From contig CAKNPS010000003.1 of the NCBI GenBank assembly GCA_930990515.1, positions 49,006-113,005 of the forward strand: 64,000 bases of DNA. Reading direction: 5' to 3'. The stretch comes from an uncultured Clostridia bacterium (GTDB lineage Bacteria; Bacillota; Clostridia; Christensenellales; UBA1242). Shown in pieces: positions 17,586-42,277 of this stretch (the first letter of the stretch is position 1; the number at the start of each line of letters is the position of its first letter). Under the pieces are notes generated by a model that saw only the letters and a program-made list of their open reading frames with translations, was not told where the DNA came from and ran no database searches. The translations under genes and the position numbers were made by a program.

Positions 17586-17803
17586 TACATAAAAGATGAT
17601 TTTTGACAAATTTATAAAAAATTTTGATAAAAAAAACTAAAAATCAAAAAAATTTTTGTATTTTTTCAGTTTTTATTGAAATTTTATTTAAAAATAAGAG
17701 ATTTATATAATTAAAAAATTTTAAAGAAATTTTTGTTTTTGCTTGAAATAGTTTGCTTTTTCTTTCGCTTATATGTTATTATATATGCGTATGGAGGGCA
17801 AAG

Positions 17804-18098: not shown

Positions 18099-18118
18099 TA
18101 CTTATGGAGGATTTTTTT

Positions 18119-24600: not shown

Positions 24601-27600
24601 CCAAGCACAACAATTTCTTCGACTTTAGTGCCAGGTTCAGACAGTATTTTAACTTTGGAAGTTAGCCCTAATTTTGCTCATTTCTCACAAATTGAAGTAA
24701 CATATACGGCTTCTTCATCTGGTATGGTTGGAACTGTAGGAATTAGTAGACTGTCATATAATTCAACTTATGGATATTATATTGATTCTTCAACAACTGA
24801 CAACATCACTTCTGGGCTTAGAGTTACTCCAACAGATAGCGATTTACAAAATGGAGTTTATTACTTTAGAATTTATGTTTCTTCAAGTTTTACATCAAAC
24901 AGCAATGTTACATTGAGATTTACTTTCTATGATGAAACAGAAAATGTTGGCTCTTACACTTATAATTATGTTATTGATTATTTAAGTTCAGCTGAAGTTC
25001 TTGTTGATGGTGCTCACAGTGTTATGCTTGCAAAAGGCGACTCTGCACAAGTTTCCATCACTTTAGACCTTGACCAAACTTTGACTAACAATAGTATTAG
25101 ATTAGAAAACAATGGAACTTCAATATATCTTAGTTCAATCACTGAAGAAGTGACAGATTCTTACAGAAGATACACCGCAACAATTTCAACAAGTGTAACT
25201 TCGAATCTTGCTGATGGAAATTCTACTGGTGCGTTCTATGTTTATGCTTCTGTTTCAAGATATGTCAATGGAATTTTAGATTATGTAGAAAGTTATGCGA
25301 CCGTTTACCTTGTTGACTTCACAATTAATGCAGACGAAACAAAGGTTGTTGGAACAACTGACACAGCAACTTATAATGGAAACACTTATGATGCTTTCTA
25401 TTCCTATATTAATGCTAATCAAACCTTAGCATTTGATTATGTAATTGAACCAGAAACATATAATTTTGACCCTAATAATAACGAAGAATATCAAGCAGTT
25501 TATGGACAAAATGGTCTTATGGCTAAGAGAAGACAATTCGTTCAAAATGGAAGTTATAGAGATGATGTTTCAGGTTACTATATCAATTATTCTTATAATT
25601 CAACAACGGGAACATACACAGAAATTCCAATTGAACAAAGACTTTATTATGTCAATAATGACGGCTCTGCGACTGCAATTTACAATAGTCAAAGAGGGGA
25701 GTTTGTGGAAAATTCTATCATTGAATTTAGTTCTGGAAGCAACGATACTCTTGTTATTAAGGGACTTAGAATTGGCAGTGTTTTACTTAGATTAACGACT
25801 ACAGTTGTCATTGGAAACACAACATTTGAATATAACTATGATTTTGTTGTTGTGATTAGCATTTGGACAGATGAAGAAGTGCCAATGCCAATCTATACAG
25901 CAGAAGAATTCTTAAATTTTGCAGCAGGAAACCCTGATGAACAAGGAAATGTAACAGCGGCTGATTACATTTTGATGAATGACATTGTGCTTGAAAACTA
26001 TACTCCTGTTGACACCACATATTTTAGAAGTTTAGACGGAAATGGCTATCAAATTTATATTTCAAGTTTCAATACTTCTGGTGCAAATTCAACATTAAAT
26101 CTTGCATTGTTTAACCAAGTTGCAAGCACTTCAACAATCAAAAATGTGAGAGTGAACTTATATAACGCTGGACAACTCACAATTAATGTAAATCAATTTA
26201 CAAACATTAATATTGCAGGTTTTGCTTTGACCAACAATGGAACGATTTATAACTGTGAAGTTGTGGCATATTATGATGAAAATCATTCAGTTTCAAGAGT
26301 TTCAGGCAACACTGGTATTGTTGTAAACTTTGTTAGAGGAAATGGAACAGATTACGTTCATTTAACATCTCAAGATATTAGTGTAAGCAATGTCAATATT
26401 TCTGGTTTTGTAAACACTAATAATAGCATAATAACAAACAGCCGTGTTGGTGGAACTAGCATTGGAACCGTTATAGAAACAGATGATCCTAATCTAAATT
26501 ACTATAGTGAAGTATTGCTTCCACTTTTCACAATTCAAGGACAAGGAACTGTGGCAGGTTTTGTAAATAACAATGTGGGAACAATTTCAGCTTCTTTTGC
26601 AAATAATGTTCAAATCAACAATCAAATGAATTCGACAACATCAATAACTTCTGGTTTTGCTGTTACAAATACGGGAGACATTAACACATCTTATACACAA
26701 GGAGCAGAGTCAGAAAGTTCATCTTCAAGTGATGGTAGAACATATTATTTTGATGGTTCAACAATTGCTTCGACAGGTAGAGTTGCAGGATTTATCTATA
26801 ATAACTCAGGTATTGTTAAAAATTCTTATGTTAATATCGCTTTTGAAGTGGATATCTCAAGAAGTTATTTATCTGCGGGCTTTGTTTATCAAAATAATGA
26901 AGGCGCGGAAATCACTCTTTGCTATGCTGCTGCAAAAATGTCATTAACTGATATTAACGAAATGAGTTTCTCGGGTGTTTCTGAAAATGGAACAACAAGC
27001 TTAAACACTGGAACAATTTCAAATTCTTATTACTATAACACCAGTCGTGTGGACACAACAACACAATCAAATTTTGATGTTGGGGCATATTCCATCACTG
27101 ATGTTGGCTACGAATCAACTTTCTATCGCTTTAGTTTTGCGTCTGAAGAAAATGCTTATGATGGCATCTGGACAATGACTGACGATGGAATTACTTTGAC
27201 AAGTGCAAATAAAATTGCTTTCTCTAATAGATATATTGTTTATAATTCTGAAGAAGAAGATGATTATTATTTCCTTTATAGAACCTTAACAGATCTAAGC
27301 AATTATAGACAAATTGACCTTTCTTATGGTTCTGAAAACAACCCAATCATCATTCGTTCGGCTGCTGATTTCGCAAAAGCAACTGGTAAAGCACAAGAAA
27401 CTGAAATTTCTTCATATAAGCGTTATTACAACGATACTGAAGTGTTTGGAACATATCGTCTTGTGAACGATATTGATTTCTCTGAAATCGACCAAAATGT
27501 TTCTGGGGAAAACAACATCTTGTTGACCACAACTTCTAAAACTTTCTCGGGAATTTTAGATGGTAACTCTTTCACAATTTCAAACATCAGTTTAGGTGCT

Positions 27601-30600
27601 TCAACAAGTATGGAAAATTATGGACTTTTTGCAAGACTCGAAGATGGTGTGATTATGAATCTTGGGCTTCAAGTGGTTTCTGTTCATAACGCAAATGCAA
27701 GAATTGTTGGAACTTTGGCTGGAACTGCGATAGATTCAAGACTTATTGCCATCAACCTTTCTCCAAATGAAAGAAGAGATGATGAAGAAGCAATTGAAGC
27801 AGTTTCAATTGAAGGTTATAATATTGTTGGTGGTCTTGTTGGTATTGTTATGGGAGATTCTATTCTTAACGATATAACAGTTACTAACATTGATGTTAAC
27901 TCTGCTTATTACTATGGAGCAAACAAATCAATAACTTACAATAGTAATTTCACTGGCGATAATTTAAGACAACTTGTATATCTCGGTTCATCATTAACTT
28001 CACTAGTTCGTTCACTTTCTTATGCAGGTGGTGTTGCTGGTTATGTGGACATATATACAAATATTGGTGATGGCTATGTTAAATATTCTTCTCAAACCGA
28101 TTTGACTGATTATGAAGTTGTTTCTATCAAAGTTTTAGATTCTGTTGATATTTTTGGCGAAGTAGCGGGCGGATTGTTTGGTTACCTTGGTAGGTCATTA
28201 ATGGCTTATGATTTAGGAATTGAACTTGATGCTGATATGGCTTTGAATAGTGCTTCATATATTACATCTAAAAACCTTTATGCTGGCGGTATTGTTGGCG
28301 AAAGTTATGCTGGTCTTTATGCCGTTTATGCTAAGTATGAAGACACCCTTCAATCTTCAATAGAAAGAGGTATTTATAATTACTATAATGGTGGCGGTTC
28401 TGAAAGAGGACAACTCAGCATATTCTCTTATTCCAGCCTTGACACAAGACATCAAGGGCGTTATAATAGTCCGCTCTATATTGGCGGTCTTGTCGGCTAT
28501 GCTGGAGCAGGCTATATCGCTGTCGGCTATAATAAATTGAATGTAACATCAAATATTGAAAGAAGTGATTACTCTTACACAACAGAAGCAGTTGGCGGAA
28601 TTGTTGGCTATATAAGTTCAGATTACAACTATGATGCTGATTTCATTTCAGAAAATGTCAATATTTCTTACTACTTGTATGAAGTTTACTTTAGCGGAGT
28701 TCTTTATTCAGAAACAAATGCTAATGCTGGTGGTATTGTTGGTGATATAGATGTAAATAACGACATTGCTTTAAATAAAGTAAATAGTATTCCTTATTAT
28801 GACACTACAGAATCAGTAAATAATGTTTATTCATTAGTTGCAGGATTTAAAGAAGAAGATAATGGTAATCTTGTTGATACTTTAGATATGTCCGATGCTA
28901 TCTACCTTCTTGATGCAAGAGGAGATTATCATAATGTAATCAATTCACTCAATGCATCAACTTCTGGTTCTGTAAGAATGAGCGTGGCAACTTCTAATCA
29001 ATATCTCATTGATGCTGGCAAACAATCATCTTATATTAATGGACTTAGCGATGATGAAGTTATTCCAAGTGGGCTATCTTATCGTCCAATTTTGGAAATG
29101 GAATCTTTAGCAAATATTCCAACAACAGATGGTGTTGACAGAGCACATTCTGCAATGGCTTCATATTTCCTTCAAAACAATTGGGACGATACTCGTTGGG
29201 AACATAAGTCAGACCAAATCTTCCCTGACATTATTCTTTATCCTAAGGACGAAGTCATTTGGCTTGATGCCGATCCTGATAGTATTGCAAGTATGCTTGA
29301 AGCGGTTAAAGATAGACCAAATGCAACTGTTGTTGTTAGAGGTAGAGTAAACGAAGATGTTGTCGGTGATTATGCCGATGTAGACTTAAGAGGATATGAA
29401 GAAATTTCAAGTTTTGGTGGAACATTTATTTCATACAACAACTATATGCATTCAAATGATGAAGGCATCATTTCTAGCACAGCGAATCAAGTAAGACAAA
29501 TTAAACGCGGAACTAATGGTGGTTCTGATACAAGTTATGTTATTGGCGGTTATGAAGGCGATGAAGTTGGACTTATTTTGAGTTCTCCACTCTTCACTTC
29601 GACTGAGTCAGGTCTTACAATTGATGGTTTAAACATATATCTTGCTGTTGATAGTAATGGAGATAAAGAGGCAATTGGAGATAATTCAGATGATTCAACC
29701 GAAATAAACCTTACTGATTCTCCAGCGATAGTTTCAGGGACACTTACAAGTGCAACACTTATTGATTTAAATATCTTTATCAATGGAAACTTGAATATTA
29801 CATCTTCTCAAACAAATATTGGACTTATTGCTGAATCTGCAAACTCAACAAATTTCCAAAGCATCAATTTCATATTTAGATATGAAAATTTAGGAACAAC
29901 AGTAAATAATCCAAAGATAAATTTAAATCTTGAAGCAAACACAGCAGATAGTAATGGTGTAAGAAACTTTGGGCTTTTAGTTGGCGAACTAGAACAAAAC
30001 AATGTTTATAATTCAACGACGGTTTCTAACATTATTATATCTTCAGAAGAGAAAAATAATAGATCATCATCGCATGATAATCTCAAGTTAGAAGCTAATA
30101 TAATTAATAATAATTATGTTAATAGTGAATATACAACTCCTGGAAATATTAATAATTCTTTAAGTTTTGGTTTCTTAATTGGACAAACAAGCATTACAGA
30201 TGGTGAAACTTTGCCTTTGAATTTTGGCATCAACAATTTGATTGACGATACTTTATCTGGAATTAACTTGACTATAGAAGGGGCAGAAGTTGAAAATGCA
30301 GGGAATAATAATGCTAATCAATCGTTGAATGATTTATATTTTGGTGGATACATTGGTAGGGCAAATTTAAGAACGGTTTCTCTAATTGGTGGAGTTAATC
30401 CAGTTTCCCTTATCAAAAACTTTATTGTTCATCAAAAGATAAGTGTTAATAATAATATGTATTTTGGACTTGGTTTTGGTGAACTTACAGGAAATGGTGA
30501 ATTTTCATTAAATGCATTATCTACAGGTTCACAAAATACAGGACTTGATGTTACAGGTGGATTATATCAATTTGAAAGTGTGACAACTGGAACCACTCAA

Positions 30601-33600
30601 ACTTCAACAAGCGATCCAGTGGTAAATGTTGGTGGGTTTATTGGAAGTGCTGATTTTACAATTTCGTTGACGAGTGCACTCAATGTTAACTTTGATGTTA
30701 AAGGTAACCAACCACTTGAAGATGCAGAGGGGAATGAAACCACATTTGAAGATTATGATAAAGGGGTTACTTCACAAAATAGTATAAATGGAATTTATTC
30801 CGCAAAAGATTTTAATAATGTTGGTGGTGTTTGGACAACTGAAACAAGTAGGACAGCTGATAATGAGTATACTGCAGAAGTCTATACTGTAAATGGTCAG
30901 AGCAATATTGGTACTTTTGTTGGAAGAATTAATAGTGGAACGTTCTCATTTAGTGAAATTTACATTAGTGAGTATAGTGATATACAAATTAGTAATGCTT
31001 CGGGTTCTACAAGTTCTAATTCTCAGTTAAATGAAACAAACATTGGAACAATTGGTTTGATTGAAAATGGTATGTTTGCAATTGAAAATGGTTCAAGTAA
31101 ATATAGTGGAGCAAACTATTTTGTTGAAACTAATGGCATTGCTAATGTTGGTGGATTGATTGGAAAAGCAAACGCTCTTTCGCAATTTAGAGTGCAATCT
31201 TATATGTATGATGGAACTGTTGTTTCATTTGCAAACACTTTGAACTTTGGTGGACTTGCAGGGAATGTAAAAATTACCAATTCTGGAAATCTTCAGTCGG
31301 TGATTTATGGTGGAACACTTAAAAACTTTGTTAAGTCAAATAATGATAATCAAACAGTAAATAATATCTACGTTGGTGGAATTATTGGTTCGGTTGATGT
31401 TTCGGGAATGTCTGGAAACAATAATTTAAATATCAATGGGGCATATTCTTATGGAGATGTTTTTGTTGCTTATGAATCGGCAAATGCAACTCTTAATTTG
31501 ACAACATTTATGTTTGGTGGAATCATAGGTTCAATCAATGACGGCGATGTTAATCCTAATGTTAGTCTTGTAAATTCTTATTCTTTAATGACGCCTTTTA
31601 ATGATAGATTGGTAGATGATGGGCTTAACGGTGCTCATTATAGAATAAACGCTTTGGTTGGACAAAATGAAGAGTTAGTAAGTTATGGACAATATAATTA
31701 TTATTCTTCTGGCGTTACAATGTCTTATCAATACGAAGGCGAAGCAAACAACATTGATGTTTCTTATGGCTTTAATGATGAAAATTATTATGGCTATAGT
31801 GCTCAAGAAATTGAAGGTAATGGTAATAATGCAGATTTATCTGGACAAATATCTAATGATAGTGACAGCGAAGGTATTATTGAAGTAATTAAAAATGCTA
31901 TTCAAGGCTTTACAACAATGTCTCAGGAAGTTAGAACCGCAGAAGGTGCTAAACTTAATCCTACAAGGGTTGTTGAAAGTGGAGATAGTGGCGATGATGA
32001 GGTTTCTTTTGCAGGTATAAGTTCAAATAGTAATACTGCAATTGATGATATGCAAATTAAGTGGTATTATTTCGAAGAAGATATTAATATTGCAGACGAA
32101 GATGCAGGCTCTATTAATACCAACAGTTTGAACAACGTTGTGATTGTCGGAAATGGTAAAACTATAACTTACACTCCAACTTCTTTAGAAAATAATCAAA
32201 TTTCTGTCTTTAAATCCATTGGGACGACTGATGACACCTTCTCAGCAATTTCTGGTCTTGTTGTTGATATTGACTTTGATTTTGATTTGGTAAGTGACAA
32301 TGTTCAGATGGCTGGTCTTGTTCAATATATTGGACAAAATGCCACAAATCCTTCAATTATGATTTATGCTGTTGGAGTTACAGGCAATGTTGAATTAGGT
32401 TCAACAGGAACAGCAAACTTTGGCGGTATTGTTTCAAATATGTATCGTGGAATGATTTCAAACTCTTATGCAGATTTGGATATCTTCTATCACGCAGGAG
32501 CAGATCGTCGAGATTCTGGCGGACAAACTTATTATTTTGCTCAATCAACATTAAGTGCAATCACAAATGTTCAAGATGGCTTGGTGGAAATTTATAACAC
32601 TTTTGCTATGGGAAATGTTAAGAGTTATGTTCCAGCAAATATCTATACATTTAATTCATATTCAACTTATAATGAAACACAAACATATAGAACAAGAATT
32701 TTTGACTCTTATTCTGTAATGCAAGTGGAAACAGAAGACTATGGTTTTAATAATAATTCTGGTGATGAAGTAGTTTCTTATGGAAATTACAATATATCAA
32801 ATTTCCAAGCATCAACACTTTCAAACAGTTATTATAGTGATTATTCTGGATTAATTGGAGTTAAAACAAGAATAGAAGGAACGAATTATATAACCGAAAT
32901 TGATTCTTCAAATAGAAATGGAATAAGATCACTTGTTGACAATATGTCCATTGGCTACAATACTGATAATGAAGTAAGATATAAAATTGACAATACTACG
33001 GGAGATATATATTCTCCATGGTTCTATTCTCCATATAGAAACTATGGCTATGGAACAACTGGATTTGTTTATTTAAGAAACACTTCAACTTATTCTCGCG
33101 AAAAAACAAACATAGAAAGCACTGCAGTTCTGACAAGTGGAGAAAATGCAACTTATGCATACAATACTTATGAATATACCAAACTTTCTGAAGAAGAACT
33201 TGCAACCTTAAATAAAACAACAGGTTCTTATACAATTACTATTGAAGAAGGAAATACAAATTCAAGAGATTATTTCTTGGCAATTACTAATGTTGGAAAA
33301 TTTAGACAACTTGTAGGTTTAGACGGCGAAAACCATAAATTCTTCTTAAAATATGACATCAATTTAAGTGATTTGTCTAAAAATAACGATACATCTTGGA
33401 ACTATAATAATAGCAATTTAGGTTCAACTAACAATATGGTTGTTCTAGACGGACAAAACCATTTAATTGAATTTGAAAATGCTAAAGGTTTGTTTATTAA
33501 TGTTTATGCTAATATGGAAAACCTTAGAGTTATAAACTATGAAGATATAAACACTCCTAACTATACAGAAGCTGTAAATGGTTATAGATACTTCGGTGTT

Positions 33601-36600
33601 CTTGCTGGAACTTATACTGGAAAACTTATTAATGTGACAGTTCAAGGAGATATTGAATTTACTGGCGCAACTGACTATGTTAATAAAGTTGGTGGTGTTG
33701 TAGGTAAATTTACTGGAACAATTATTTCGGCTGAAAATCTTGTCAATATTAGCATAGAAAATGGTGCAAATGTTGTTGGTGGTATTGTTGGCGAATTTAA
33801 TGGCGATGCCGATGTTGACGACGGATTAGTAGAAGATGTTGAAACTGTTGCTGGGGATATTGTTAATACACTTAAGGATGGAACAATTTCTTATTCGTCA
33901 AACAATGGAACAATTGTGGCAAAAACAAGTTTATTTAGTAGTACAACAGGAACTGGAACACCAAGCAGTATGACAACTGGGCTTGTGGCTACAACATCTC
34001 ATAACCCTTATAACGATGGTGGAGATAGTTCTGGAAGTATCTCAACACAAAATGAACCAGTGGATAGAAATAGCAATTTAGTTACAGTTCTTGGCGGTAT
34101 TGCAGGGTATGTTTCAGAAGGAACTATTGACCACGCATATAATAATGCAACTGTAATGAATAATTATGATGACTTAGATAACTATACTTGGGAGAAAAAT
34201 CTTGCAAGCGGTGGTATTGTTGGTTACTCTGAAGGTAATATTTCAAATTCATTAAATATGGGATATGTCGTTTCTGGAAACAACAGAAATACAGGTGTGG
34301 CTCTTGCTGGTGGTATTGTTGGCTATTCTACAGGTAAAGTTTCTTATTCTTATAACGATGCTAAAGTTCAGGCAGTAAGTTACATTAATGCAAGTCATTA
34401 TAAGATTACAATGGAAAATCTAACTTATGAGGAAAAAGGGCAAGCCGATTCTGGTTCTAACAAAGTGGATTTCACATTCAAAATTGAATACAACACTTAT
34501 GAGACAACTGAACACAATGAAGAAACTGGTGAAGAAGTCACTGTTGATGTGAAAATGGATAGGCTTGTTATGGCATATGGTATTGGATATATCAATGGTG
34601 GTTCTGAAGAAGGTAATGCAAACTTTGACACTGAAGAAATTGTTAACGATGGAAACATTGGCTATACTATAAGAAGAATAACTCCATCTTTTGAAGCTCA
34701 AAGATATTCAGGTGGTGATACTTCAATTTTAAGTGTAGTTGATAATGTTGATAATATAGTTGAAAAATATGATTATTATTTAGCAACAGGTGAAGATGGT
34801 GAAGATGGGGCTGACATAAGAATTAGTGCTTATGATTCTTATGGTTTCCCAAGTAGATTTAATTACTATTATTCTTATTCATTTGATATTAAAGGATTTA
34901 ATCATAATTATAATAGTTCGTTTGGTCCATTTATGAGTTTTATGCTCACTGATCGTTCTCCAAATACTACATTGGGAGATACTCAAATTTCAAATTACAG
35001 TGAAACAACTTCTTTAAGTGACAATATTTATCCAGGCGGAGATTCAACATATTACTTCTCAATTCCACTTTATAACACGACAACTAAGTTTATTAATGAT
35101 GGGAATTCTTATGAAGAACTTGTTGAAGATATCAGTAATTTAAACAGCAATCTTAATCGCACAAATAGTGATGATGTTGATGAAACAGATTTTGATAATC
35201 TTTATAGTGACATTAATGCAGTAAGAGAAGCAGAAGATGATGTTACTGATGAAAGCATCAATGTTAATGGTAAAGAATATACTTATGTAAGTTCAAGTGG
35301 CGATTTCACATCTTTCACTGGTGGTGTTGGCATAAGTGGAGCTATCCCTATTGAAGTTCCAGATGTAGGTTATTCTTATGAAGATGATCTTTTGGACCCA
35401 GGTTCTTTGACAGTTCGACCTATCCGTGTGTCATCAATTGATTTTGGTTTACACATAGATGAAACAAGCGGAGTTTCAGTCAATGATGATCTATTAACAA
35501 ATCTTGAAGCAATTGGTGCTAATGTTAGAATAAGCGAAGAAAATGGCTCATATTTCCTTAACTATACTGCTTATTATAATAGAAGTGAACTTGCAAATGC
35601 ATTGGGATTAACTTCAGGTAGTAATGTTCAAAATGTTATAGAGGCTATTCAACTTGATGTTCAATACAACTTAATTTATCAATATTCAACTGAAATCACT
35701 TTAACAAAACGTAATTTAAATAAATTTACTAATGCAAGATTAGGTTATGGTGTGGAAGTTGATATGATAACCAACACAAATGGTTATCAAGCACTTTCAA
35801 TTGGAGAATATTTAGATGAGTATGGTTTTGCAGACTATTATAATGGAATCTTAAATCGAGATGAAGAATTAGATAATTTAGAAGTTTATTTCACTAACAG
35901 TGGCACAAATTACTATTATGATACTCAAGATAATATTTTTGTTGAAATGGGCGATAGTGTTCCCGCAAATGTTTTAACCTTGGATTTAATTAGAGATGCA
36001 AGTTTATCTAATGATAATGAAAATGATAAAATTGCAGATTACTTAGGTGTTCTATTGCGTTTCAGCAATGATTTGAAAAGAAACAGATTCATTAATTTAG
36101 TTACAAATACGGCAAGTCCTTACACAATGAATATAGTTTATTATGTTCAAGGAAATGGTGCTTATGATCAAACAATTGGTGGTTCAACAACTTTTAATGC
36201 ATCATATAGTAGAGCAGTAAATTTCCCAACAAATGATATATCAAACCCAAATGGATCATATGTTACTAAAACTGATAATGGAAATAGTGCGGTTTTTGAG
36301 TTTATTGTTGATAGTTTTGATGGATCCGATGAAGTTGTAATTAATTTTACTTCAAGTGGTTCAAGTGGTGATAGTTCAAGTGCAACCATAACTTTAAATA
36401 TAGATTATAATGCTTCAACTGTAGATGACAGATATTCATATACTTATGGTAGTGGTGTTTCACAGGATTATAGTACTGGTAATTATTATATATTTGGTAC
36501 AGGATCAGATGTAAGCACATGGCCAGTAAGGTTGACAACTGGAGTTTCAGGTGAAGGTAATCCAACCATTATTTTAACAAGTAATAATGATAATGGTAGA

Positions 36601-39600
36601 ATATATATTACAAATGCAAATGTGAGCAGAATTTCATTCACAGAATATGAATTAGATCTTCCAAGCGAATATAATAGGACAACAACAATTGAAGTTAATG
36701 GTAATAATTATGATGTAACAGGAATCTATAAATTAAAATTGAGCGGTAATCAAATTCTTGATGAAAATGATCAGGTAATTGATGGTTATACTTATTCTAA
36801 TGGAACTTTAACAAGAGAACAAGGCGTTGATTCTAATGTCACATTGTATTATACTTATGATAGGGCAGAAACTGAAGATGGACTTCAAGTTGCATCGGCT
36901 AGCACTTCAGATGGTGGCATCAACATTGTTTATATAGCAAATGATGGTTTCTATTATTCTCTTTACGAAGATGAGAATGGAAATTTAGTAAACGGCACAG
37001 AAGATAAAGGCAGTGGAAATTATGTTCAAATGATTGATGGAGATTCTGATTCTGCCGCCACAAGCATTAATTACACATTCTATAGCACTGGAACAATTAG
37101 TTCTTTCCATGGAATTAATATTACATCTGGAAATTATATTGTTACAGAAGCAAAGTATCCAAATGGAGCATTAAGTTATACTCTAACTAAGGTTGATGCA
37201 GAAAGTCCTATTTTAGTAATATATCATATAATGGATATAGCCTATAAGGTAGACGAAAATGGACAAACAACTTCTGAAGTTATCCAATCGGGCTATGAAT
37301 ATGTTATTGATTATACAGGTTCCTCGGCATCTTATTATATGGTAGAAATTGCAGGAGAAAATACATATAACATAATAGATACAAACAAATGGGATAATTT
37401 AGAGAACTACTTCTTAGATGAAGACTATTTAAATTCATATTACATGCAAGGTGGCTCTGGCAGTATTTTAGATTATACATATGATATGGATCCTTACTTT
37501 AGTTTTAAATATTCTAAATTGCTTTCTGCTAACACTGTTTTAGGGCAAGAATATTCACTTAGAACAGGACTGGGAGAACATGATACTACTTCAGGAATAG
37601 TTAATACTTTTAGTTACATTACCAGCAGTGGAGGAAATATTACTGGACTGGAATTTAATAATATAAGATATCAAGTTCAATCATATTCATTAAATGTTAG
37701 TTTAAAGTTAGGAGAAGGGTATGAAACAAGAATAAATTATAAAGCGGAAGTCGTAACTGAAGGAGAAGAAATTCAGATTTATTATTTAGATAAAAATAAT
37801 AATAGAATTGCTATTGTAGAAAGCGAAAATATTGTTTCAGGAAGTGGAGAAATAGAAGATGTAAATCAATATATAGTTTTAATAGAAGATGTAAATTTAA
37901 ATGGAACAATAATAAGAAGTGGAACTAGGATCGCAGAAATTTTAGATAATAATGAAATTGAGTTTGTGAATGCTTCTTATGAAAATATTTTAGGGACAGA
38001 AGAACAAACCATACCTTTAGGTAGTATTATGACTTATACTATGCAATTAAGAACTTCTGATAATAATATAGTCACATTAACAATTGAATTAGGTTTAGAT
38101 TCTTTACTATTTACTAACGATTATACTTCAAAATTAATAGCAAATAATATTACAGAAAATACATCTAATTATGGCACGACAATTCCAAATGTTGAATTTA
38201 CGGAAAATAGTTTAGCATCTTACTCTGGAAATGAAGTTGTGTTTAATGCTGCAAATTTTGGTCCTACTGAAACAGAAAGTTCAACAGAGATGTATTTTGG
38301 ACCATCGTCAATAACTTTTGATGTTGGAACAGAAGATATTATTGATTCTGGAACTGTCAATGGAAATATAACACTAAGCACTTCTTCATCAAAGGATAGT
38401 TTCATAGCAACTGGTTTGGAAAATAATGTTGATAATACGAATGATAAACAACATTCTCTTTCAATTGGAGTTGATGATACAGCTCAAGAATTTGGTTCAT
38501 TTACTGATTATTATGAATTTGAATTAACAATTCCATTTATATTTAATAATCAAAAAGATGAAACTTTAACTGCTGATGATTTTGCATCATCAAATGGTAA
38601 CATCATAATTTCTGATAATATTTATATTCAAGATATGTCAACAACAATAAATGGATTAAATACTGACACTATGGAAGTTAGAGGTTATAATTATTTAATA
38701 ACACAAAAACTCTCTCTTGGAACTTTCTATTATGCTGTTCGTGTTGGGGCAACAGGCTATCTACAAGATTTAGTCTTTGCAATTTCTGCTGATGCTGATC
38801 CTAATGATGAAAGAGCAAGTGTAAATGTTTTCGACGTTGTAAGTAGTGAAACAGGTGGAACAAGAGTTTCAAATATCCTAATTTATGGAACAATAAGACA
38901 AATTTCTGTTGATAAGTTCTATAATATTGGAACTGATGCCAATGGTTCTATAACAATTTTAAATGCTTCTTCATTAAATGCAACATCATTAGAATCAAAT
39001 ATGTCATTAATTGGTGCCGATGGACTATCTGGAAATAGTGTATGGCAAAATGGAGACGGATTTGATAGTGGAAATGGTGAGAGCGTTCTTGTTACTTTAC
39101 AATCAAAAACAGGAAATGTAACTCTTGCTGACAACTCCATCTTAGTTGCTGGCAATGGTGGCAATGGCAGTAATGGGACTGATGGAAGCCGCTCAAATAA
39201 CTTTAATAGACCTAAAGGCAACAATGGTGAAAACGCTGGAAATGGTGGTAATGGCGGTGTTGTTTCTGGAGAAGGAATTTCAATTTCTGGGGCTGACGGA
39301 ACGGCTGGCAATGGCGGTAATGGTGCCGATGGATTGAATGCCACAACAGATTCAAATGCTGGCGGTGGCGGTGCCGGTGGAGATAGTGGTACTACTGGTG
39401 CTAAAAACAAAATGACAAATCGTCAATATAATAAAGATATCGCTGGAAGTGGTGGCTCGGGAGGACTAGGAATGTTCTATAATGGTAATGCTGATTATGA
39501 GAGTGATTCTGATTATTATCATGAATACTCATATTCTGGAAATGCAACACAACCCGATAAGGGTGATTCCACCAAAGGTGGCGGTTATAATGACAATGGT

Positions 39601-40824
39601 TACTCAACAAATTTAACTAGAAATTCAAATTATTCTGCTTGGATTAAAACATCTGGTGGCGGTGGTGCTGCTGGTGATATATCAACAATAACAATAAAAA
39701 GTGGTTCTAATGGAGATTTTATTGAACCTAATGAAAAAATATTACAAAGAGGGTTTAATAGATATAGAAGTAATACTACTGCAACATCTGGATATTATTG
39801 GAATTATAACTACGGCAATAATGGTAGAGAAAGGTTGTTTGGAAATCTTCAAATGACTTCAACATTCTCATACTATGGAACAACAGCAGACGATACTGGT
39901 CCACGAAATATAAATGGCTCAATTGCAGAAACGAAATATACAAGTGTCTATGATTTTTCATCATATTTAAGTCAAGAAGCGGGTGCAGGTTGGACTATTT
40001 TTGGATTTCAAGTAGCATATGAAATTTCATTGGGCGTTGCAGCCGGATTTATTAGTTCAGGAATAGGTGCAGGAATAGGTGCAGGAATAGCTGGTGTTGC
40101 AACTGGAGTATTTTTTGCAGCAACTGCTGTGGATTGGGGGATTTTAGAATATCATAATTCAAATATGATTTTTGGTAATCAGCAATTCTTTATAGGTATT
40201 AGAGATGATGGTGGCTGGTTTGTACTAGACGATATACCATTATTAGGTATTGTATTTGATATAATAATGGAAATTCCACCTTTAACTTTTATAGATATTG
40301 ATGCTCCTAGAAATTATGCAAAAACATTCTTTGAACAAGGTGATATATACTATCAAGATGGTGGTTATGGTGATTATTGGTGGCTATATTATGATAAGAA
40401 TAGCTATGACACTAATAACAATCTTTTAGATGCTAATAGTTATAAGTCCGCATTCCTTAGATATTTAAATGGAATTCAAGATAACTTCAAAATTATCAAA
40501 AATAATAGAGTTGCTAGTGGTGGTATTTATGCTTGGGAAAATAATTTCTATGGTGGTTTAGGTGCTGGAGATGGAACTGGAATTGGTGGAAATGGTGGAA
40601 CTGCCTACACAAAAGAAATTTATGGTTATGCAAAAATGGATAATGGAACTATTAACGGTGATTCACTAATTGAAAATGAATCTGGCTATAAGTGCTTCTT
40701 TACAAGAAATGATATGGTTACATCTTCTGGTAAGTATGGTGATGCTGGTCAAACTAAGGACAGTGACACAACTTCAGGGCTTGATTCTTTAGGCAATTTT
40801 GTTGATGAAACAACAAACAATTAA
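18700..40824 (+). CDS. giant (~7,374 aa) surface lipoprotein: Ig-like repeats, multiple GLUG-motif modules, Gly-rich block, glycine-zipper hydrophobic hairpin, unknown C-terminal domain
   Basis: AAGGAGG 18688-18694 then ATG 18700. The frame stays open for 22,125 nt while all other frames hold only short ORFs. Lipoprotein signal MKKIAFGFLTLMMLFGGVLLSAC. More than 20 GG(I/V/L/F)(V/I/A)G motifs, for example AGGIVGY at 22612-22632, 28282-28305 and 34306-34329. Confidence 0.9.
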   Translation: MKKIAFGFLTLMMLFGGVLLSACGERNISISVSASEVEVYTNNAQEDSFENISVTLNGSDDGIGVQLESQNDVVEVTEPTRDRSGNYTFTINALRSGNATVRVYSIEDPSVYQYINVTSYTYLEELESLDLNDQDGRSGLYVVKGDSNGKDLTPTNFFNLYPLDANVTDIVWTFAENGGTVLYQSNTQVVAEIVDNQTLYVSENCTSYLTIDLVASFVQMPSVTGNVSLEVIDSSSIADFYIGASDEDRILIRNDATESTVSGRIVVNTIDDEMTAELVAYQMRNGMYIELQDYSDYFTVSSMTYNYENDQRIIDFTIDAQVDPEKQRLSGDIYVAFNLKYSAFTYEISTASSLDDLVLISTYFIPETLLLRDSTMSSISGRTIDLYSNYFTSYGYEVLVNVYPDDVVLNNSNYQILINANSTNMAQNPNYYLKVYKEDDLLNPITFTQSGTSTTWISEEIENGTSVYLQAGDGNYGSIADFAIQFVASGNGTATETIYANLYNITENENLDIREYTIGEDGEHILGDEFAFNQRYYISSSENSMSRDFYLRIYGYSTSTGLNLVYNQNNNFTVSYVENGRYEDVNNPDNSYVDLIVTVNVTREGYEGAFNFSFSHQTGATSETISIFAFAPIEDVVLVNNSEGSTNIYYDETNSQGFVYEQVDGQTIVSEDPNYTTNHTLSSLLMSAGSNINLGLGYGNATLNIDEYTAGYYFAYMDYDTFMGINTFEEGVDTEAIFNNLDPYRDGYNYNFITNNNNYFTYSNGYLTVASEQGEFVIYVAVIVQGYDENHDELNLMRIFKLESFYPVNSLRSNVTDARLYASESVSSTDANLTYTDVSVSLRLDKSAPTYIDLSNFSISLRNGITNVVSNEEDGLTYDTDSNGNITRAYLNSVTIENEYVTLSGFELVYADQTSQGLNSLRFRITAKSTEFNSVWNEIVNLTYELNYENVLVSTLSTNINIEIIQADRVENVTWINETEDGEIYLNIASNDPAEQSFIISTSISPNYAENRNLTYHYQQHNQGESVLEIRTDSISQSFSLTIGNRSRGGYGYLYILPEDMVKIVNGIRQIVIYGVDENGDIETQAQYLPLSQIDNYYEELIGGTYETEYGTIANYFINNYNERVYYSDIILKIRVTVADGLSEETAIRVYSQSDLENVENNLYYRVMNDIDLVNFNSIGEGTTFSGMIFGNTDDVTLSFANNSESLVDRLSGTIKNLTMTGNVVGGGFVANYIQEGGLVDNVTVDVNYENGNYLPSTLTQGVAIDGNYYAGGIAGQNMGTISNSNVFGLEIDLNQNGGYTNTVAGGIVGYNLGGRVENCGVEFYNFIRTESTGEEDVEATYNNKITANVVGGIIGQGGYSLNASTGAVNDIRIINSYVYAFNLIYQDGDSPADISGDSYTSVLNGQDGAVGAFVGSLNVNGSAGGATYFRLVNSFAFLGDYRRNNVNSNIFNDLSIGQIKGSGSRVYQNSYITYFEIVGETENTGDGETTVYRYRLKMDYVLNESTTIADLNNVRTLEYSNIDSIDYSEFDSSVWETNEIDQDVNFGFAYLRDVNQNIAVSVDQTIQTVDGKTINADYVDGDSQVKAGILFLYQTQENVTNAGAQSEINRANTISITDLFGVTEREAQSLLISVDRENFIGFTTNNITALRTNINLGQTIKLTLYSRVDFSDSQTYEIMVINYVPELTLTTGNTVISDGDVLNVQTRSQEVDGSDNSRQVQVVLDYSTYFNGEEYHLVSDDAYSYSVSYENNTSENGDYISNYVSGNNITFIANSATGNDYVNTTINLNFDRLKTNYSQFNDALTNYRKSNFYISSYLGANSLIVDARDFNITPDESVSFNAEIISDSKEEDLSLTFTYNDRDYFVDENNQVVINDNLVLDVDWTKETDGTRNNFKVVINVNRDYRHKVDATYDFVISINALSQNNNTNLLKTINFVVQKQRINKVNVTAYTISSRTINNSRWYYTPSTTISSTLVPGSDSILTLEVSPNFAHFSQIEVTYTASSSGMVGTVGISRLSYNSTYGYYIDSSTTDNITSGLRVTPTDSDLQNGVYYFRIYVSSSFTSNSNVTLRFTFYDETENVGSYTYNYVIDYLSSAEVLVDGAHSVMLAKGDSAQVSITLDLDQTLTNNSIRLENNGTSIYLSSITEEVTDSYRRYTATISTSVTSNLADGNSTGAFYVYASVSRYVNGILDYVESYATVYLVDFTINADETKVVGTTDTATYNGNTYDAFYSYINANQTLAFDYVIEPETYNFDPNNNEEYQAVYGQNGLMAKRRQFVQNGSYRDDVSGYYINYSYNSTTGTYTEIPIEQRLYYVNNDGSATAIYNSQRGEFVENSIIEFSSGSNDTLVIKGLRIGSVLLRLTTTVVIGNTTFEYNYDFVVVISIWTDEEVPMPIYTAEEFLNFAAGNPDEQGNVTAADYILMNDIVLENYTPVDTTYFRSLDGNGYQIYISSFNTSGANSTLNLALFNQVASTSTIKNVRVNLYNAGQLTINVNQFTNINIAGFALTNNGTIYNCEVVAYYDENHSVSRVSGNTGIVVNFVRGNGTDYVHLTSQDISVSNVNISGFVNTNNSIITNSRVGGTSIGTVIETDDPNLNYYSEVLLPLFTIQGQGTVAGFVNNNVGTISASFANNVQINNQMNSTTSITSGFAVTNTGDINTSYTQGAESESSSSSDGRTYYFDGSTIASTGRVAGFIYNNSGIVKNSYVNIAFEVDISRSYLSAGFVYQNNEGAEITLCYAAAKMSLTDINEMSFSGVSENGTTSLNTGTISNSYYYNTSRVDTTTQSNFDVGAYSITDVGYESTFYRFSFASEENAYDGIWTMTDDGITLTSANKIAFSNRYIVYNSEEEDDYYFLYRTLTDLSNYRQIDLSYGSENNPIIIRSAADFAKATGKAQETEISSYKRYYNDTEVFGTYRLVNDIDFSEIDQNVSGENNILLTTTSKTFSGILDGNSFTISNISLGASTSMENYGLFARLEDGVIMNLGLQVVSVHNANARIVGTLAGTAIDSRLIAINLSPNERRDDEEAIEAVSIEGYNIVGGLVGIVMGDSILNDITVTNIDVNSAYYYGANKSITYNSNFTGDNLRQLVYLGSSLTSLVRSLSYAGGVAGYVDIYTNIGDGYVKYSSQTDLTDYEVVSIKVLDSVDIFGEVAGGLFGYLGRSLMAYDLGIELDADMALNSASYITSKNLYAGGIVGESYAGLYAVYAKYEDTLQSSIERGIYNYYNGGGSERGQLSIFSYSSLDTRHQGRYNSPLYIGGLVGYAGAGYIAVGYNKLNVTSNIERSDYSYTTEAVGGIVGYISSDYNYDADFISENVNISYYLYEVYFSGVLYSETNANAGGIVGDIDVNNDIALNKVNSIPYYDTTESVNNVYSLVAGFKEEDNGNLVDTLDMSDAIYLLDARGDYHNVINSLNASTSGSVRMSVATSNQYLIDAGKQSSYINGLSDDEVIPSGLSYRPILEMESLANIPTTDGVDRAHSAMASYFLQNNWDDTRWEHKSDQIFPDIILYPKDEVIWLDADPDSIASMLEAVKDRPNATVVVRGRVNEDVVGDYADVDLRGYEEISSFGGTFISYNNYMHSNDEGIISSTANQVRQIKRGTNGGSDTSYVIGGYEGDEVGLILSSPLFTSTESGLTIDGLNIYLAVDSNGDKEAIGDNSDDSTEINLTDSPAIVSGTLTSATLIDLNIFINGNLNITSSQTNIGLIAESANSTNFQSINFIFRYENLGTTVNNPKINLNLEANTADSNGVRNFGLLVGELEQNNVYNSTTVSNIIISSEEKNNRSSSHDNLKLEANIINNNYVNSEYTTPGNINNSLSFGFLIGQTSITDGETLPLNFGINNLIDDTLSGINLTIEGAEVENAGNNNANQSLNDLYFGGYIGRANLRTVSLIGGVNPVSLIKNFIVHQKISVNNNMYFGLGFGELTGNGEFSLNALSTGSQNTGLDVTGGLYQFESVTTGTTQTSTSDPVVNVGGFIGSADFTISLTSALNVNFDVKGNQPLEDAEGNETTFEDYDKGVTSQNSINGIYSAKDFNNVGGVWTTETSRTADNEYTAEVYTVNGQSNIGTFVGRINSGTFSFSEIYISEYSDIQISNASGSTSSNSQLNETNIGTIGLIENGMFAIENGSSKYSGANYFVETNGIANVGGLIGKANALSQFRVQSYMYDGTVVSFANTLNFGGLAGNVKITNSGNLQSVIYGGTLKNFVKSNNDNQTVNNIYVGGIIGSVDVSGMSGNNNLNINGAYSYGDVFVAYESANATLNLTTFMFGGIIGSINDGDVNPNVSLVNSYSLMTPFNDRLVDDGLNGAHYRINALVGQNEELVSYGQYNYYSSGVTMSYQYEGEANNIDVSYGFNDENYYGYSAQEIEGNGNNADLSGQISNDSDSEGIIEVIKNAIQGFTTMSQEVRTAEGAKLNPTRVVESGDSGDDEVSFAGISSNSNTAIDDMQIKWYYFEEDINIADEDAGSINTNSLNNVVIVGNGKTITYTPTSLENNQISVFKSIGTTDDTFSAISGLVVDIDFDFDLVSDNVQMAGLVQYIGQNATNPSIMIYAVGVTGNVELGSTGTANFGGIVSNMYRGMISNSYADLDIFYHAGADRRDSGGQTYYFAQSTLSAITNVQDGLVEIYNTFAMGNVKSYVPANIYTFNSYSTYNETQTYRTRIFDSYSVMQVETEDYGFNNNSGDEVVSYGNYNISNFQASTLSNSYYSDYSGLIGVKTRIEGTNYITEIDSSNRNGIRSLVDNMSIGYNTDNEVRYKIDNTTGDIYSPWFYSPYRNYGYGTTGFVYLRNTSTYSREKTNIESTAVLTSGENATYAYNTYEYTKLSEEELATLNKTTGSYTITIEEGNTNSRDYFLAITNVGKFRQLVGLDGENHKFFLKYDINLSDLSKNNDTSWNYNNSNLGSTNNMVVLDGQNHLIEFENAKGLFINVYANMENLRVINYEDINTPNYTEAVNGYRYFGVLAGTYTGKLINVTVQGDIEFTGATDYVNKVGGVVGKFTGTIISAENLVNISIENGANVVGGIVGEFNGDADVDDGLVEDVETVAGDIVNTLKDGTISYSSNNGTIVAKTSLFSSTTGTGTPSSMTTGLVATTSHNPYNDGGDSSGSISTQNEPVDRNSNLVTVLGGIAGYVSEGTIDHAYNNATVMNNYDDLDNYTWEKNLASGGIVGYSEGNISNSLNMGYVVSGNNRNTGVALAGGIVGYSTGKVSYSYNDAKVQAVSYINASHYKITMENLTYEEKGQADSGSNKVDFTFKIEYNTYETTEHNEETGEEVTVDVKMDRLVMAYGIGYINGGSEEGNANFDTEEIVNDGNIGYTIRRITPSFEAQRYSGGDTSILSVVDNVDNIVEKYDYYLATGEDGEDGADIRISAYDSYGFPSRFNYYYSYSFDIKGFNHNYNSSFGPFMSFMLTDRSPNTTLGDTQISNYSETTSLSDNIYPGGDSTYYFSIPLYNTTTKFINDGNSYEELVEDISNLNSNLNRTNSDDVDETDFDNLYSDINAVREAEDDVTDESINVNGKEYTYVSSSGDFTSFTGGVGISGAIPIEVPDVGYSYEDDLLDPGSLTVRPIRVSSIDFGLHIDETSGVSVNDDLLTNLEAIGANVRISEENGSYFLNYTAYYNRSELANALGLTSGSNVQNVIEAIQLDVQYNLIYQYSTEITLTKRNLNKFTNARLGYGVEVDMITNTNGYQALSIGEYLDEYGFADYYNGILNRDEELDNLEVYFTNSGTNYYYDTQDNIFVEMGDSVPANVLTLDLIRDASLSNDNENDKIADYLGVLLRFSNDLKRNRFINLVTNTASPYTMNIVYYVQGNGAYDQTIGGSTTFNASYSRAVNFPTNDISNPNGSYVTKTDNGNSAVFEFIVDSFDGSDEVVINFTSSGSSGDSSSATITLNIDYNASTVDDRYSYTYGSGVSQDYSTGNYYIFGTGSDVSTWPVRLTTGVSGEGNPTIILTSNNDNGRIYITNANVSRISFTEYELDLPSEYNRTTTIEVNGNNYDVTGIYKLKLSGNQILDENDQVIDGYTYSNGTLTREQGVDSNVTLYYTYDRAETEDGLQVASASTSDGGINIVYIANDGFYYSLYEDENGNLVNGTEDKGSGNYVQMIDGDSDSAATSINYTFYSTGTISSFHGINITSGNYIVTEAKYPNGALSYTLTKVDAESPILVIYHIMDIAYKVDENGQTTSEVIQSGYEYVIDYTGSSASYYMVEIAGENTYNIIDTNKWDNLENYFLDEDYLNSYYMQGGSGSILDYTYDMDPYFSFKYSKLLSANTVLGQEYSLRTGLGEHDTTSGIVNTFSYITSSGGNITGLEFNNIRYQVQSYSLNVSLKLGEGYETRINYKAEVVTEGEEIQIYYLDKNNNRIAIVESENIVSGSGEIEDVNQYIVLIEDVNLNGTIIRSGTRIAEILDNNEIEFVNASYENILGTEEQTIPLGSIMTYTMQLRTSDNNIVTLTIELGLDSLLFTNDYTSKLIANNITENTSNYGTTIPNVEFTENSLASYSGNEVVFNAANFGPTETESSTEMYFGPSSITFDVGTEDIIDSGTVNGNITLSTSSSKDSFIATGLENNVDNTNDKQHSLSIGVDDTAQEFGSFTDYYEFELTIPFIFNNQKDETLTADDFASSNGNIIISDNIYIQDMSTTINGLNTDTMEVRGYNYLITQKLSLGTFYYAVRVGATGYLQDLVFAISADADPNDERASVNVFDVVSSETGGTRVSNILIYGTIRQISVDKFYNIGTDANGSITILNASSLNATSLESNMSLIGADGLSGNSVWQNGDGFDSGNGESVLVTLQSKTGNVTLADNSILVAGNGGNGSNGTDGSRSNNFNRPKGNNGENAGNGGNGGVVSGEGISISGADGTAGNGGNGADGLNATTDSNAGGGGAGGDSGTTGAKNKMTNRQYNKDIAGSGGSGGLGMFYNGNADYESDSDYYHEYSYSGNATQPDKGDSTKGGGYNDNGYSTNLTRNSNYSAWIKTSGGGGAAGDISTITIKSGSNGDFIEPNEKILQRGFNRYRSNTTATSGYYWNYNYGNNGRERLFGNLQMTSTFSYYGTTADDTGPRNINGSIAETKYTSVYDFSSYLSQEAGAGWTIFGFQVAYEISLGVAAGFISSGIGAGIGAGIAGVATGVFFAATAVDWGILEYHNSNMIFGNQQFFIGIRDDGGWFVLDDIPLLGIVFDIIMEIPPLTFIDIDAPRNYAKTFFEQGDIYYQDGGYGDYWWLYYDKNSYDTNNNLLDANSYKSAFLRYLNGIQDNFKIIKNNRVASGGIYAWENNFYGGLGAGDGTGIGGNGGTAYTKEIYGYAKMDNGTINGDSLIENESGYKCFFTRNDMVTSSGKYGDAGQTKDSDTTSGLDSLGNFVDETTNN

Positions 40825-40847
40825 AATTTTACTTAGGAGAAAATGTT

Positions 40848-41570
40848 ATGGACAATAGTGATGTTTCACATGAAGGACATAGAAAAAGACTTTTGGACAC
40901 TGTCATTAAAGCAGGACTTGAAAATTTAAGTGAAATTCAAATTGTGGAATTTATGCTCACTTATGTCTTTCCGCGAGGGGATGTCAATCCTCTCGCACAT
41001 CGTCTCCTTGACGCTTATGGAACTCTTGGCGGCATTCTTGATGCTGAACCTGTCGAACTTATGACAATTAAAGGTATTAATGAAAGGAGTGCAAAGAAAA
41101 TCTCCAGTTTAAGTTCCCTTTTCTTCGCTTACACCACTTCAAGAATGAGAGGACATGGTGTTTATGAAAACGAAGGAGAAATATTGGACTTGGTGGAAGT
41201 TTCACTGAGATTTCGCACCACAGAAAATTTTCTTATGCTTGGTTTTAGTCCTGCCAATATTCTTTGCGGAAGTAAAAGAGTTGTTTCTTCCAAGACTGAC
41301 GAAGTAAGTATTAACATTCTAGATTTCATGGCTTTCATATCTTCTTGCAAACCTACATCTTTGGTTGTTGCACACAATCATCCTTATGGGAAGGCAAAAC
41401 CTAGTCCAAAAGATGACAATGCAAGAAAATTGATTGAAAATCTTTGTTTCAATTGTGGAATTAGACTTTTGGACACCTACATTATTGGCGAAGACGGAGT
41501 TTATAGCCAAGGTCGAAAGGAATTTAGAAGAAAATATTGCAATGTTGACGACTTGGTTGATTTGTTCTAA
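40848..41570 (+). CDS. radC: RadC-like JAB/MPN domain protein
   Basis: AGGAG SD, ATG 23 nt after the giant gene stop. HEGHRKRL, HhH region IKGINERSAKKI and JAB motif VVAHNHPYGKAKPSPKDD. Confidence 0.85.
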   Translation: MDNSDVSHEGHRKRLLDTVIKAGLENLSEIQIVEFMLTYVFPRGDVNPLAHRLLDAYGTLGGILDAEPVELMTIKGINERSAKKISSLSSLFFAYTTSRMRGHGVYENEGEILDLVEVSLRFRTTENFLMLGFSPANILCGSKRVVSSKTDEVSINILDFMAFISSCKPTSLVVAHNHPYGKAKPSPKDDNARKLIENLCFNCGIRLLDTYIIGEDGVYSQGRKEFRRKYCNVDDLVDLF

Positions 41571-41601
41571 AAAGTTTAAGGCATTTACCTTTGAAATCAA
41601 C

Positions 41602-41642
41602 AAAAAAAGATAGTGGAAATATAACTTCACTATCTTTTTTTT
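41602..41642 (+). terminator. intrinsic terminator closing the giant-gene/radC unit
   Basis: A-run, GATAGTG-12 nt-CACTATC hairpin, T8 run. Confidence 0.7.
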
Positions 41643-41798: not shown

Positions 41799-42212
41799 TT
41801 AAAATAATTTTAAGAAAAAATATGTGACAACTGCTCCTATTATTGTTCCAAGAAGTGCAAACAAAAATGATAAAAGAATTGTGAGCCGATTTGTTTTTTG
41901 TTTTTCTTTTTTTGTAATTTTTATTGGTTCTTCAATTTCTTCAAAGCCAAAAGGGAGCACAGCAAGGCAGTAGGTGTCGTCATCATCATATTTAATGGAA
42001 ATCATATCTTGTCTTTCAAGATGTGTTAGAATGTGTCTTATTCCTTCGCTATCCGTTCTATAGTGTTTCGGCAATAAAGAGATGATATCCGAACTTTCAA
42101 ATATCTTATAACTCCCACCGCTGCTTTCTTTTGCCAGTATTTTCAAAACAAGTCTTGACTTTGTGTCTAGCATAACTATATTTTTGCTTTTTAATAATTT
42201 TTTATTCTTCAT
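41799..42212 (-). CDS. hypothetical winged-helix-like protein with C-terminal TM anchor
   Basis: 137 aa. Soluble N-terminal ~95 aa (LVLKILAKES...IRHILTHLERQDMISIKYDD). Basic linker KKEKQKTNR, then TM LTILLSFLFALLGTIIGAVVTYFFL. Confidence 0.5.
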   Translation of the reverse strand: MKNKKLLKSKNIVMLDTKSRLVLKILAKESSGGSYKIFESSDIISLLPKHYRTDSEGIRHILTHLERQDMISIKYDDDDTYCLAVLPFGFEEIEEPIKITKKEKQKTNRLTILLSFLFALLGTIIGAVVTYFFLKLF

Positions 42213-42277
42213 TCCTTATTAAAGTTAAAGGTCAGTCGTGATTGTATAAAAATTTTGTTTTGCAAAAAAATAATGAT

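Follow-up and report, generated by a model that had tools for sequence, protein, structure and literature searches.

Ebh of Staphylococcus aureus is a giant surface protein with a C-terminal transmembrane (TM) anchor. Other giant bacterial proteins, including those of the 'Dockerin-type', also have TM anchors close to the C-terminus (bioRxiv 10.1101/2023.11.21.568195). A related arrangement may exist in an uncultured Clostridia bacterium, where a 64,000-nucleotide stretch of contig CAKNPS010000003.1 (the window) carries a gene for a 7,374-residue lipoprotein. Close to its C-terminus, this protein has a hydrophobic, Gly/Ala-rich stretch that is a candidate helical hairpin of the membrane. Like the proteins with known anchors, it is a very long exported chain that has an export signal at the N-terminus and a putative anchor within a few hundred residues of the C-terminus. 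The window protein differs from them because it possesses a lipobox, because only 6 of its 14 family members have the candidate anchor, and because the reading favored here is a two-helix hairpin inside an extracellular module in place of one span and a basic cytoplasmic tail.

In polytopic membrane proteins, the weak helix of a marginally hydrophobic hairpin inserts with the help of a strong neighbor. The stretch and its homologs resemble these hairpins, where a helix with an insertion free energy (dG) near 0 is paired through a short turn with a helix of +2 to +4 kcal/mol. Here, however, the hairpin would be the sole membrane element of an otherwise soluble exported protein. Glycine zippers are a further point of comparison. 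The TM glycine-zipper families (Gly-zipper_Omp, Gly-zipper_OmpA, Gly-zipper_YMGG, Rick_17kDa_Anti) consist for the most part of small Gram-negative lipoproteins. The Gly/Ala-rich helix of the window has four matches to the zipper motif, but it lacks a match to the hidden Markov models (HMMs) of these families, and the motif is repeat-derived and not conserved. Several Gram-positive and other contact-dependent toxins are reported to need their glycine zippers for toxicity (PMC10434224, PMC12744356, PMC5380434, PMC11630599). TelE, EsxX, LXG-T2, CdzC/CdzD and the ionophoric CdiA C-terminal toxins of contact-dependent inhibition resemble the window protein in that a zipper element is found near the C-terminus of a surface or secreted protein. 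Unlike these toxins, the window protein lacks an LXG, WXG or CdiA delivery domain, and no immunity gene adjoins its gene. Its element is not at the extreme C-terminus, is in a conserved chromosomal position, and has a zipper that is not conserved.

The hydrophobic stretch begins 281 and finishes 230 residues before the C-terminus of the giant protein (Table 1). The mechanical open reading frame (ORF; 18667-40824, + strand) opens at TTG 18667, but the real start is ATG 18700, which is preceded by an AAGGAGG ribosome-binding site seven bases upstream. Residues 20-23 of MKKIAFGFLTLMMLFGGVLLSAC are LSAC, which matches the lipobox pattern [LVI][ASTVI][GAS]C and predicts lipidation. The 51-residue peptide that the original prediction placed about 280 residues from the C-terminus is exact on translation. 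The 12-nt tandem repeat, first described at 40060-40095, is located by Tandem Repeats Finder (TRF) at 40058-40090 as a perfect repeat, a trivial offset.

On the Kyte-Doolittle (KD) scale, the 19-mer maximum (KD19) of the stretch is 1.84, compared to 2.15 for the signal peptide. Other segments of the giant protein do not exceed 1.52, except for the neighboring acidic amphipathic stretch (1.78). On the Hessa scale, a cut-off of a 19-mer sum <= 3.2 was applied to the 29 other large ORFs of the window. This selects membrane proteins and signal peptides only, and none of Mfd, UvrA, UvrB, RadC and the like. Within the giant protein, it selects just the signal peptide and the hydrophobic stretch. Together, the KD 19-mers and the Hessa cut-off bear out the claim that this is the only long hydrophobic stretch after the signal peptide, and both values fall within the range of the TM segments in the window. 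The Hessa/von Heijne dG predictor was re-implemented and was checked on controls. The membrane proteins of the window range from -4.5 to +2.5. Mfd, UvrB, RadC, a metallo-beta-lactamase (MBL)-fold protein and an 854-aa ORF have no segment below 2.5, and UvrA has one at 2.16. In the giant protein, predicted helix 2 (+1.25) is the best TM candidate of the stretch, and the next-best segment among the 7,350 exported residues is at +1.99. Predicted helix 1 (+2.67) has marginal hydrophobicity and one Glu inside. The simpler KD and Hessa scales are in agreement with these dG values. As a TM candidate, the Gly/Ala-rich segment is marginal rather than textbook.

AlphaFold2 (AF2) gives a helix-break-helix over the stretch in both runs, which covered the last 400 aa and 161 aa around the hairpin. 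In the 161-aa run, DSSP assigns a helix to residues 7106-7130, a break to 7131-7134 (SGIG) and a helix to 7135-7169, all numbered from the TTG. The predicted local distance difference test score (pLDDT) is 62-71 for the hairpin residues and poor elsewhere. The proposal of two helices is therefore supported, at modest confidence, by a four-residue break between them. As a fold, the model of the last 400 aa was discarded (pLDDT 33), and AF2 cannot fold the module because only 5-6 sequences are available. A Foldseek search of the 161-aa model against the PDB returned no match with E < 2.4.

Homologs of the C-terminus are few. A phmmer search with the last 326 aa as query and 1.84 billion cluster representatives as target returned five matches, and two word-index searches returned two matches and then nothing new. 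A scan of GTDB genomes found two contigs of metagenome-assembled genomes labeled 'uncultured Clostridia bacterium' (L001 and L002), and a metagenome scan yielded L004, L005 and L006. A search seeded with L006 added six proteins (P0007-P0012). Among billions of proteins, only 14 members of the C-terminal module family were found; P0003 is the same as L001, P0006 is the same as L005, and P0011 comes from L007. These homologs diverge strongly, with 46-61% amino acid identity. No Pfam domain, precomputed or detectable, was found in any of the 14 members. The PDB gave no match to a single-sequence search with the C-terminus of the window protein and nothing meaningful to a family-profile search (best E = 0.5, BurrH). 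Protein collections seem to contain these giant genes in truncated or split form, which would partly explain the scarcity of homologs. P0011, for example, is called publicly as a 548-aa gene (L007 10001-11647), yet its ORF is open for at least 3,859 aa (L007 68-11647).

The module is a conserved, unannotated region of ~600 aa that terminates giant proteins of uncultured Clostridia (39139-40749 in the window; L001, L002, L006, L007; P0001-P0012). It is composed, in order, of polar GNGGNG.DG repeats, FGNLQ, FYGG...GGT.YT.EIYGY and FF[TS]RNDMVTS.G.YG. Five homologs (P0001, P0002, P0003, P0004 and L002) share a two-part hydrophobic stretch at the same alignment position, between ...ERLFGNLQMTSTFSYYG and N[ST]xM[IV][FW]G ... 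DGGxGDYWWLY. The sequence of this stretch is essentially unconserved among the five, and its hydrophobic pattern is retained. In each homolog, the best helix has a dG of -0.51 to +0.70 and its partner 2.15 to 4.09, and the stronger helix is the first in P0003 and P0004 and the second in the others. The N[ST]xM[IV][FW]G motif is restricted to this hairpin-bearing subclade and is loosely kept there (NTHKLFG in P0004).

The family divides according to this stretch. In the six hairpin-bearing members, the insert measures 188-223 aa and has a KD19 of 1.44-2.41. The other eight (P0006/L005, L006 and P0007-P0012) have an insert of 63-110 aa with a KD19 of at most 0.93. These eight retain the FGNLQ..., FYGG...EIYGY and FF[TS]RNDMVTS blocks that flank the insertion on both sides, and columns within FYGG..GGT.YT.EIYGY and FF[TS]RNDMVTS.G.YG are invariant in 14/14 members. 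As judged from the alignment, the hydrophobic element was inserted into a variable loop of a single conserved module and is a feature of a subclade.

Because the module is kept on both sides of the insertion, both flanks should share one compartment, and an even number of spans, or none, is therefore favored over a single pass. Flank charges and the composition after the hairpin also favor this. Summed over the six hairpins, the two 25-residue flanks have 11 and 12 K/R and 24 and 24 D/E, and are thus symmetric and acidic. The turns, which frequently contain Pro/Trp in the homologs and have Lys/Arg in two sequences, contain 4 K/R and 0 D/E in total. The 230 residues after the hairpin match the exported body of the protein in composition, with much N/G/Y/D, little K/R and one Cys. 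The original prediction also placed the two flanks on the same side of the membrane, using Gly-rich motifs that recur after the stretch. This placement now has stronger evidence in the symmetric acidic flanks and in the blocks kept by the eight hairpin-less relatives. Downstream of the stretch, the Gly-rich block GGLGAGDGTGIGGNGGTAY (40534-40635) is more conserved than any other in the family; its motif is polar and GGxGxD-like, not a hydrophobic GxxxG zipper.

Table 1. Features of the giant lipoprotein gene, its C-terminal module and the adjoining gene (positions within the window).
Feature	Position	Strand	Basis or detail
Giant lipoprotein gene	18700..40824	+	7,374 aa; ATG start
Lipoprotein signal peptide MKKIAFGFLTLMMLFGGVLLSAC	18700..18768	+	lipobox LSAC, Cys23; dG -0.78
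Upstream part of C-terminal module	39139..39879	+	polar Gly-rich GNGGNG.DG repeats, then RGFNRYR..GYYWNY..ERLFGNLQMTSTFSYYG; conserved in 14/14 members
Hydrophobic stretch, 51 residues, AGAGW...ATAV	39979..40131	+	aa 7094-7144 (ATG numbering) = 7105-7155 (TTG numbering)
Predicted helix 1 GAGWTIFGFQVAYEISLGVAAGFIS	39982..40056	+	AF2 DSSP; dG +2.67; Hessa 19-mer sum 5.18
Turn SGIG	40057..40068	+	AF2 DSSP; homolog alignment
12-nt tandem repeat CAGGAATAGGTG	40058..40090	+	TRF: period 12, 2.8 copies, 100% identity; encodes GIGAGIGAG
Predicted helix 2, hydrophobic part, AGIGAGIAGVATGVFFAATAV	40069..40131	+	dG +1.25; KD 1.84; Hessa 1.89
N[ST]xM[IV][FW]G motif, directly after the hairpin	40156..40176	+	homolog alignment
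Acidic amphipathic stretch GGWFVLDDIPLLGIVFDIIMEIPPLTFIDIDA, part of the hairpin insertion	40210..40305	+	hydrophobicity, alignment, AF2
Subclade-specific conserved block DGGYGDYWWLY	40357..40389	+	homolog alignment
Downstream module blocks WENNFYGG.GAGDGTG..GNGGTAYTKEIYGYAK and YKCFFTRNDMVTSSGKYGDAG	40534..40749	+	invariant columns in members with and without the hairpin
radC-like gene (PF04002)	40848..41570	+	24 nt past the giant-gene stop

The tentatively favored reading, held at a little under an even chance, is that the stretch is a lineage-specific helical hairpin that inserts into the cytoplasmic membrane of the producer during Sec export and tethers the C-terminal module with both flanks outside. 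Membrane insertion, the hairpin topology and the tethering role are what we infer. The element would be a helix-turn-helix of ~50 residues, rich in Gly/Ala/Ser/Thr, inserted in the otherwise polar, extracytoplasmic C-terminal module of a Sec-exported lipoprotein. Near the end of export, the hairpin would meet SecYEG and partition laterally into the cytoplasmic membrane. One helix would have a near-zero insertion energy, and its marginal partner would be stabilized by small-residue packing against it. The short turn would face the cytoplasm, and the last ~230 residues would be exported as well. The C-terminal module would thereby gain a second membrane tether, besides the lipid anchor at the N-terminus. 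The giant protein has no sortase motif and no C-terminal anchor of another kind.

Several observations weigh against this reading. On the Wimley-White octanol scale, helix 2 is at +1.06, outside the range of the real TM segments of the window, and the best octanol 19-mers are -1.6 to -6.3 kcal/mol, whereas the window's real TM segments and signal peptides span -3.3 to -16.9. Helix 1 contains a Glu, and the partner helices of the homologs contain R, K and D. Positive charges are found in just 2/6 turns. Both AF2 models have low overall confidence, with a pLDDT of 33 for the last 400 aa and 45 for the 161-aa run. A 19-mer KD >= 1.84 is reached by 420/500 composition-preserving shuffles of the mature protein. 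Because shuffles readily give such 19-mers, the stretch is not statistically striking by itself; a 45-residue segment as hydrophobic as that observed occurs in 16/500 shuffles. The stretch is taken as real because its hydrophobic character recurs at the same site in five homologs. A second tether is also not obviously needed, because the lipid anchor already retains the protein and eight relatives manage without the hairpin. Finally, L004 and L008 (P0001-type allele) each have an early in-frame stop a short way upstream of the hairpin module, and the two stops fall in different codons. In L004 (308-313), TAA replaces the Leu of ERLFGNLQ, and in L008 (121-132), TAG replaces a Tyr of SGYYWNY. 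Because coverage is low (6x for L004, 2x for L008), these stops may be errors, pseudogenization or a split gene.

Much of this evidence also bears on a reading in which the Gly/Ala-rich helices are not embedded in the membrane of the producer and instead form a hydrophobic surface or core element of an extracellular module. The helices may pack against the module, drive homo-oligomerization of the giant protein by small-residue packing between helices, or attach peripherally to the membrane surface. This is rather unlikely. In its favor, hydrophobicity is marginal on all scales and positive for helix 2 on the octanol scale, charged residues are inside the partner helix, and an acidic amphipathic helix of the same insertion comes next. 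A 19-mer of this hydrophobicity is expected by chance at the composition of the giant protein, and zero spans fits the same-side argument equally well. However, no cytosolic protein of the window reaches the Hessa cut-off. On dG, only the UvrA segment (2.16) comes near, and the rest of the 7,350 exported residues are never below +1.25. The sequence drifts while hydrophobicity stays, which is typical of lipid-facing helices rather than specific protein interfaces, and AF2 leaves the helices unpacked against the module, albeit in a low-confidence model. A single-pass stop-transfer anchor is an improbable alternative. Here, the stronger helix would span alone and the last ~230 residues would be a cytoplasmic tail, as in Ebh-type giants. 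Each homolog has one helix near a dG of zero and a partner at 2-4 kcal/mol, and a pure hydrophobicity predictor would probably call one TM segment. Precedent exists in Ebh itself and in the C-terminal TM and intracellular regions of giant proteins (bioRxiv 10.1101/2023.11.21.568195). Against this, a single span would divide a module whose blocks on the two sides stay invariant in eight relatives that have no intervening TM segment. The C-terminal flank is as acidic as the N-terminal flank, leaving no positive-inside signal, and the tail has the composition of the exported body. Moreover, the hydrophobic helix switches between homologs, from the first in P0003 and P0004 to the second in the others.

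The glycine zipper, which the original prediction treated as the defining feature of the stretch, is not supported as such. The hydrophobic stretch of the window contains four overlapping (G/A/S)xxxGxxxG or GxxxGxxx(G/S/T) matches, and most of these are inside or overlap the part encoded by the 12-nt repeat (40058-40090). P0002 has one match, and the motif is absent from the hydrophobic stretch of P0003, P0004, P0001 and L002, so that 2/6 hairpins have it overall. The zipper of the window comes largely from a recent expansion of the repeat. A scan with Gly-zipper_Omp, Gly-zipper_YMGG and Rick_17kDa_Anti had been proposed as a check. An hmmscan of the 77-aa segment, the last 474 aa and six family members against Pfam-A found no glycine-zipper family even at E <= 10, where HMMER filters lose many weak matches above about E 0.1. 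This is a caution against inferring function from a glycine zipper that is derived largely from a recent repeat expansion.

The other role proposed for the stretch was that of a membrane-active effector, with the hairpin entering the membrane of a target cell to cause pore formation or depolarization and the giant protein serving as a contact-dependent weapon. This is very unlikely. In its favor, the toxicity of TelE, EsxX and CdzC/D is reported to depend on glycine-zipper motifs (PMC10434224, PMC12744356, PMC5380434). The hairpin region is also the most divergent part between two strains whose radC genes are 98-100% identical, which is reminiscent of polymorphic cassettes. However, the zipper is not conserved in the family, and the segment is missing from eight relatives. 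The segment lies in the interior of the chain, and conservation peaks at the extreme C-terminus, in the last ~100 aa, with 94% nucleotide identity between the window and L004. No immunity-like ORF is found directly downstream of the giant gene. Instead, radC (PF04002) begins 24 nt past the stop, in conserved synteny with uvrB and uvrA. Pfam and NCBIfam searches found no delivery domain (LXG, WXG, FHA and similar), and there was no match to a glycine-zipper, toxin, defense-related or phage family. A variant of this idea, also highly improbable, is a strain-variable membrane-active cassette whose hairpin is masked in the module until it is inserted into the membrane of a contacted cell. If true, uncultured Clostridia would have a contact-dependent membrane effector that lacks an immunity partner and belongs to a family without an annotated domain.

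Pfam and NCBIfam searches of the giant protein found no domain above threshold, and a PHROGs search found no match. A holin-like or phage origin was rejected because no phage family matched. No LPxTG, NPQTG or relaxed variant is present across the entire giant protein. A sortase-type anchor was rejected because this motif is missing and 230 residues still come after the hydrophobic stretch. The protein has a strongly acidic composition that includes 10.8% Asn and just 6 Cys. Its body is full of GG[IL][VA]G-type repeats, such as AGGIAGQN, VGGIIGQ and GGLVGY. These resemble GLUG or beta-helix repeats and were not called by the domain searches.

Downstream of the giant gene, the order in the window is radC, uvrB and uvrA. 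A terminator-like site is present after radC (41602-41641), and none is found between the giant gene and radC. In L002, ORFs the size of radC, uvrB and uvrA come next. radC is also 3' of the giant gene in L004 and L007, and L008 ends in a short truncated ORF at the same offset. Wherever the downstream sequence suffices to identify it, radC follows the module gene. The hairpin-less L007 occupies the same radC-linked position, and its ORF is likewise giant, with 3,859 aa or more inside the locus. In the window, the giant gene is closely preceded by an acyl-carrier-protein-like (acpP-like) ORF (17753-18031 +, 92 aa) and a SpoIIID-like ORF (18104-18376 +, 90 aa), both assigned by eye. These by-eye calls suggest the chromosome of a spore-forming member of the Clostridia. 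Two divergent small ORFs, 41799-42212 (-, 137 aa) and 42242-42637 (+, 131 aa), are found between radC and the next lipoprotein gene, and each encodes a polar N-terminal domain and a single C-terminal TM segment. The second lipoprotein (42768-43502 +, 244 aa) has a signal peptide ending in LATAC, a beta-helix-like sequence and no Pfam match.

Comparison of the window with L004 at the DNA level reveals variation within the module. Identity is 98-100% in radC and ~94% over the final ~100 codons of the giant gene. Positions 39576-39903 are only 72% identical, and 39909-40528, which includes the hairpin region, have no detectable similarity. Within the compared region (39576-41625), a sharp, recombination-like breakpoint is found near 40530. 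The pattern looks like allelic replacement of a surface-exposed region, in which close strains carry different C-terminal alleles. Such divergence would also be expected from diversifying selection on any surface antigen.

None of the 14 module family members found here matches Pfam, NCBIfam or the PDB, and the hairpin is the first handle on the position of the module relative to the membrane. Related genes that have or lack the hairpin also offer a natural comparison, and at least one of these genes shares the same place in the genome. If the favored reading is true, a 7,374-residue lipoprotein would be pinned to the membrane at both ends, which would constrain the export and display of such a chain.

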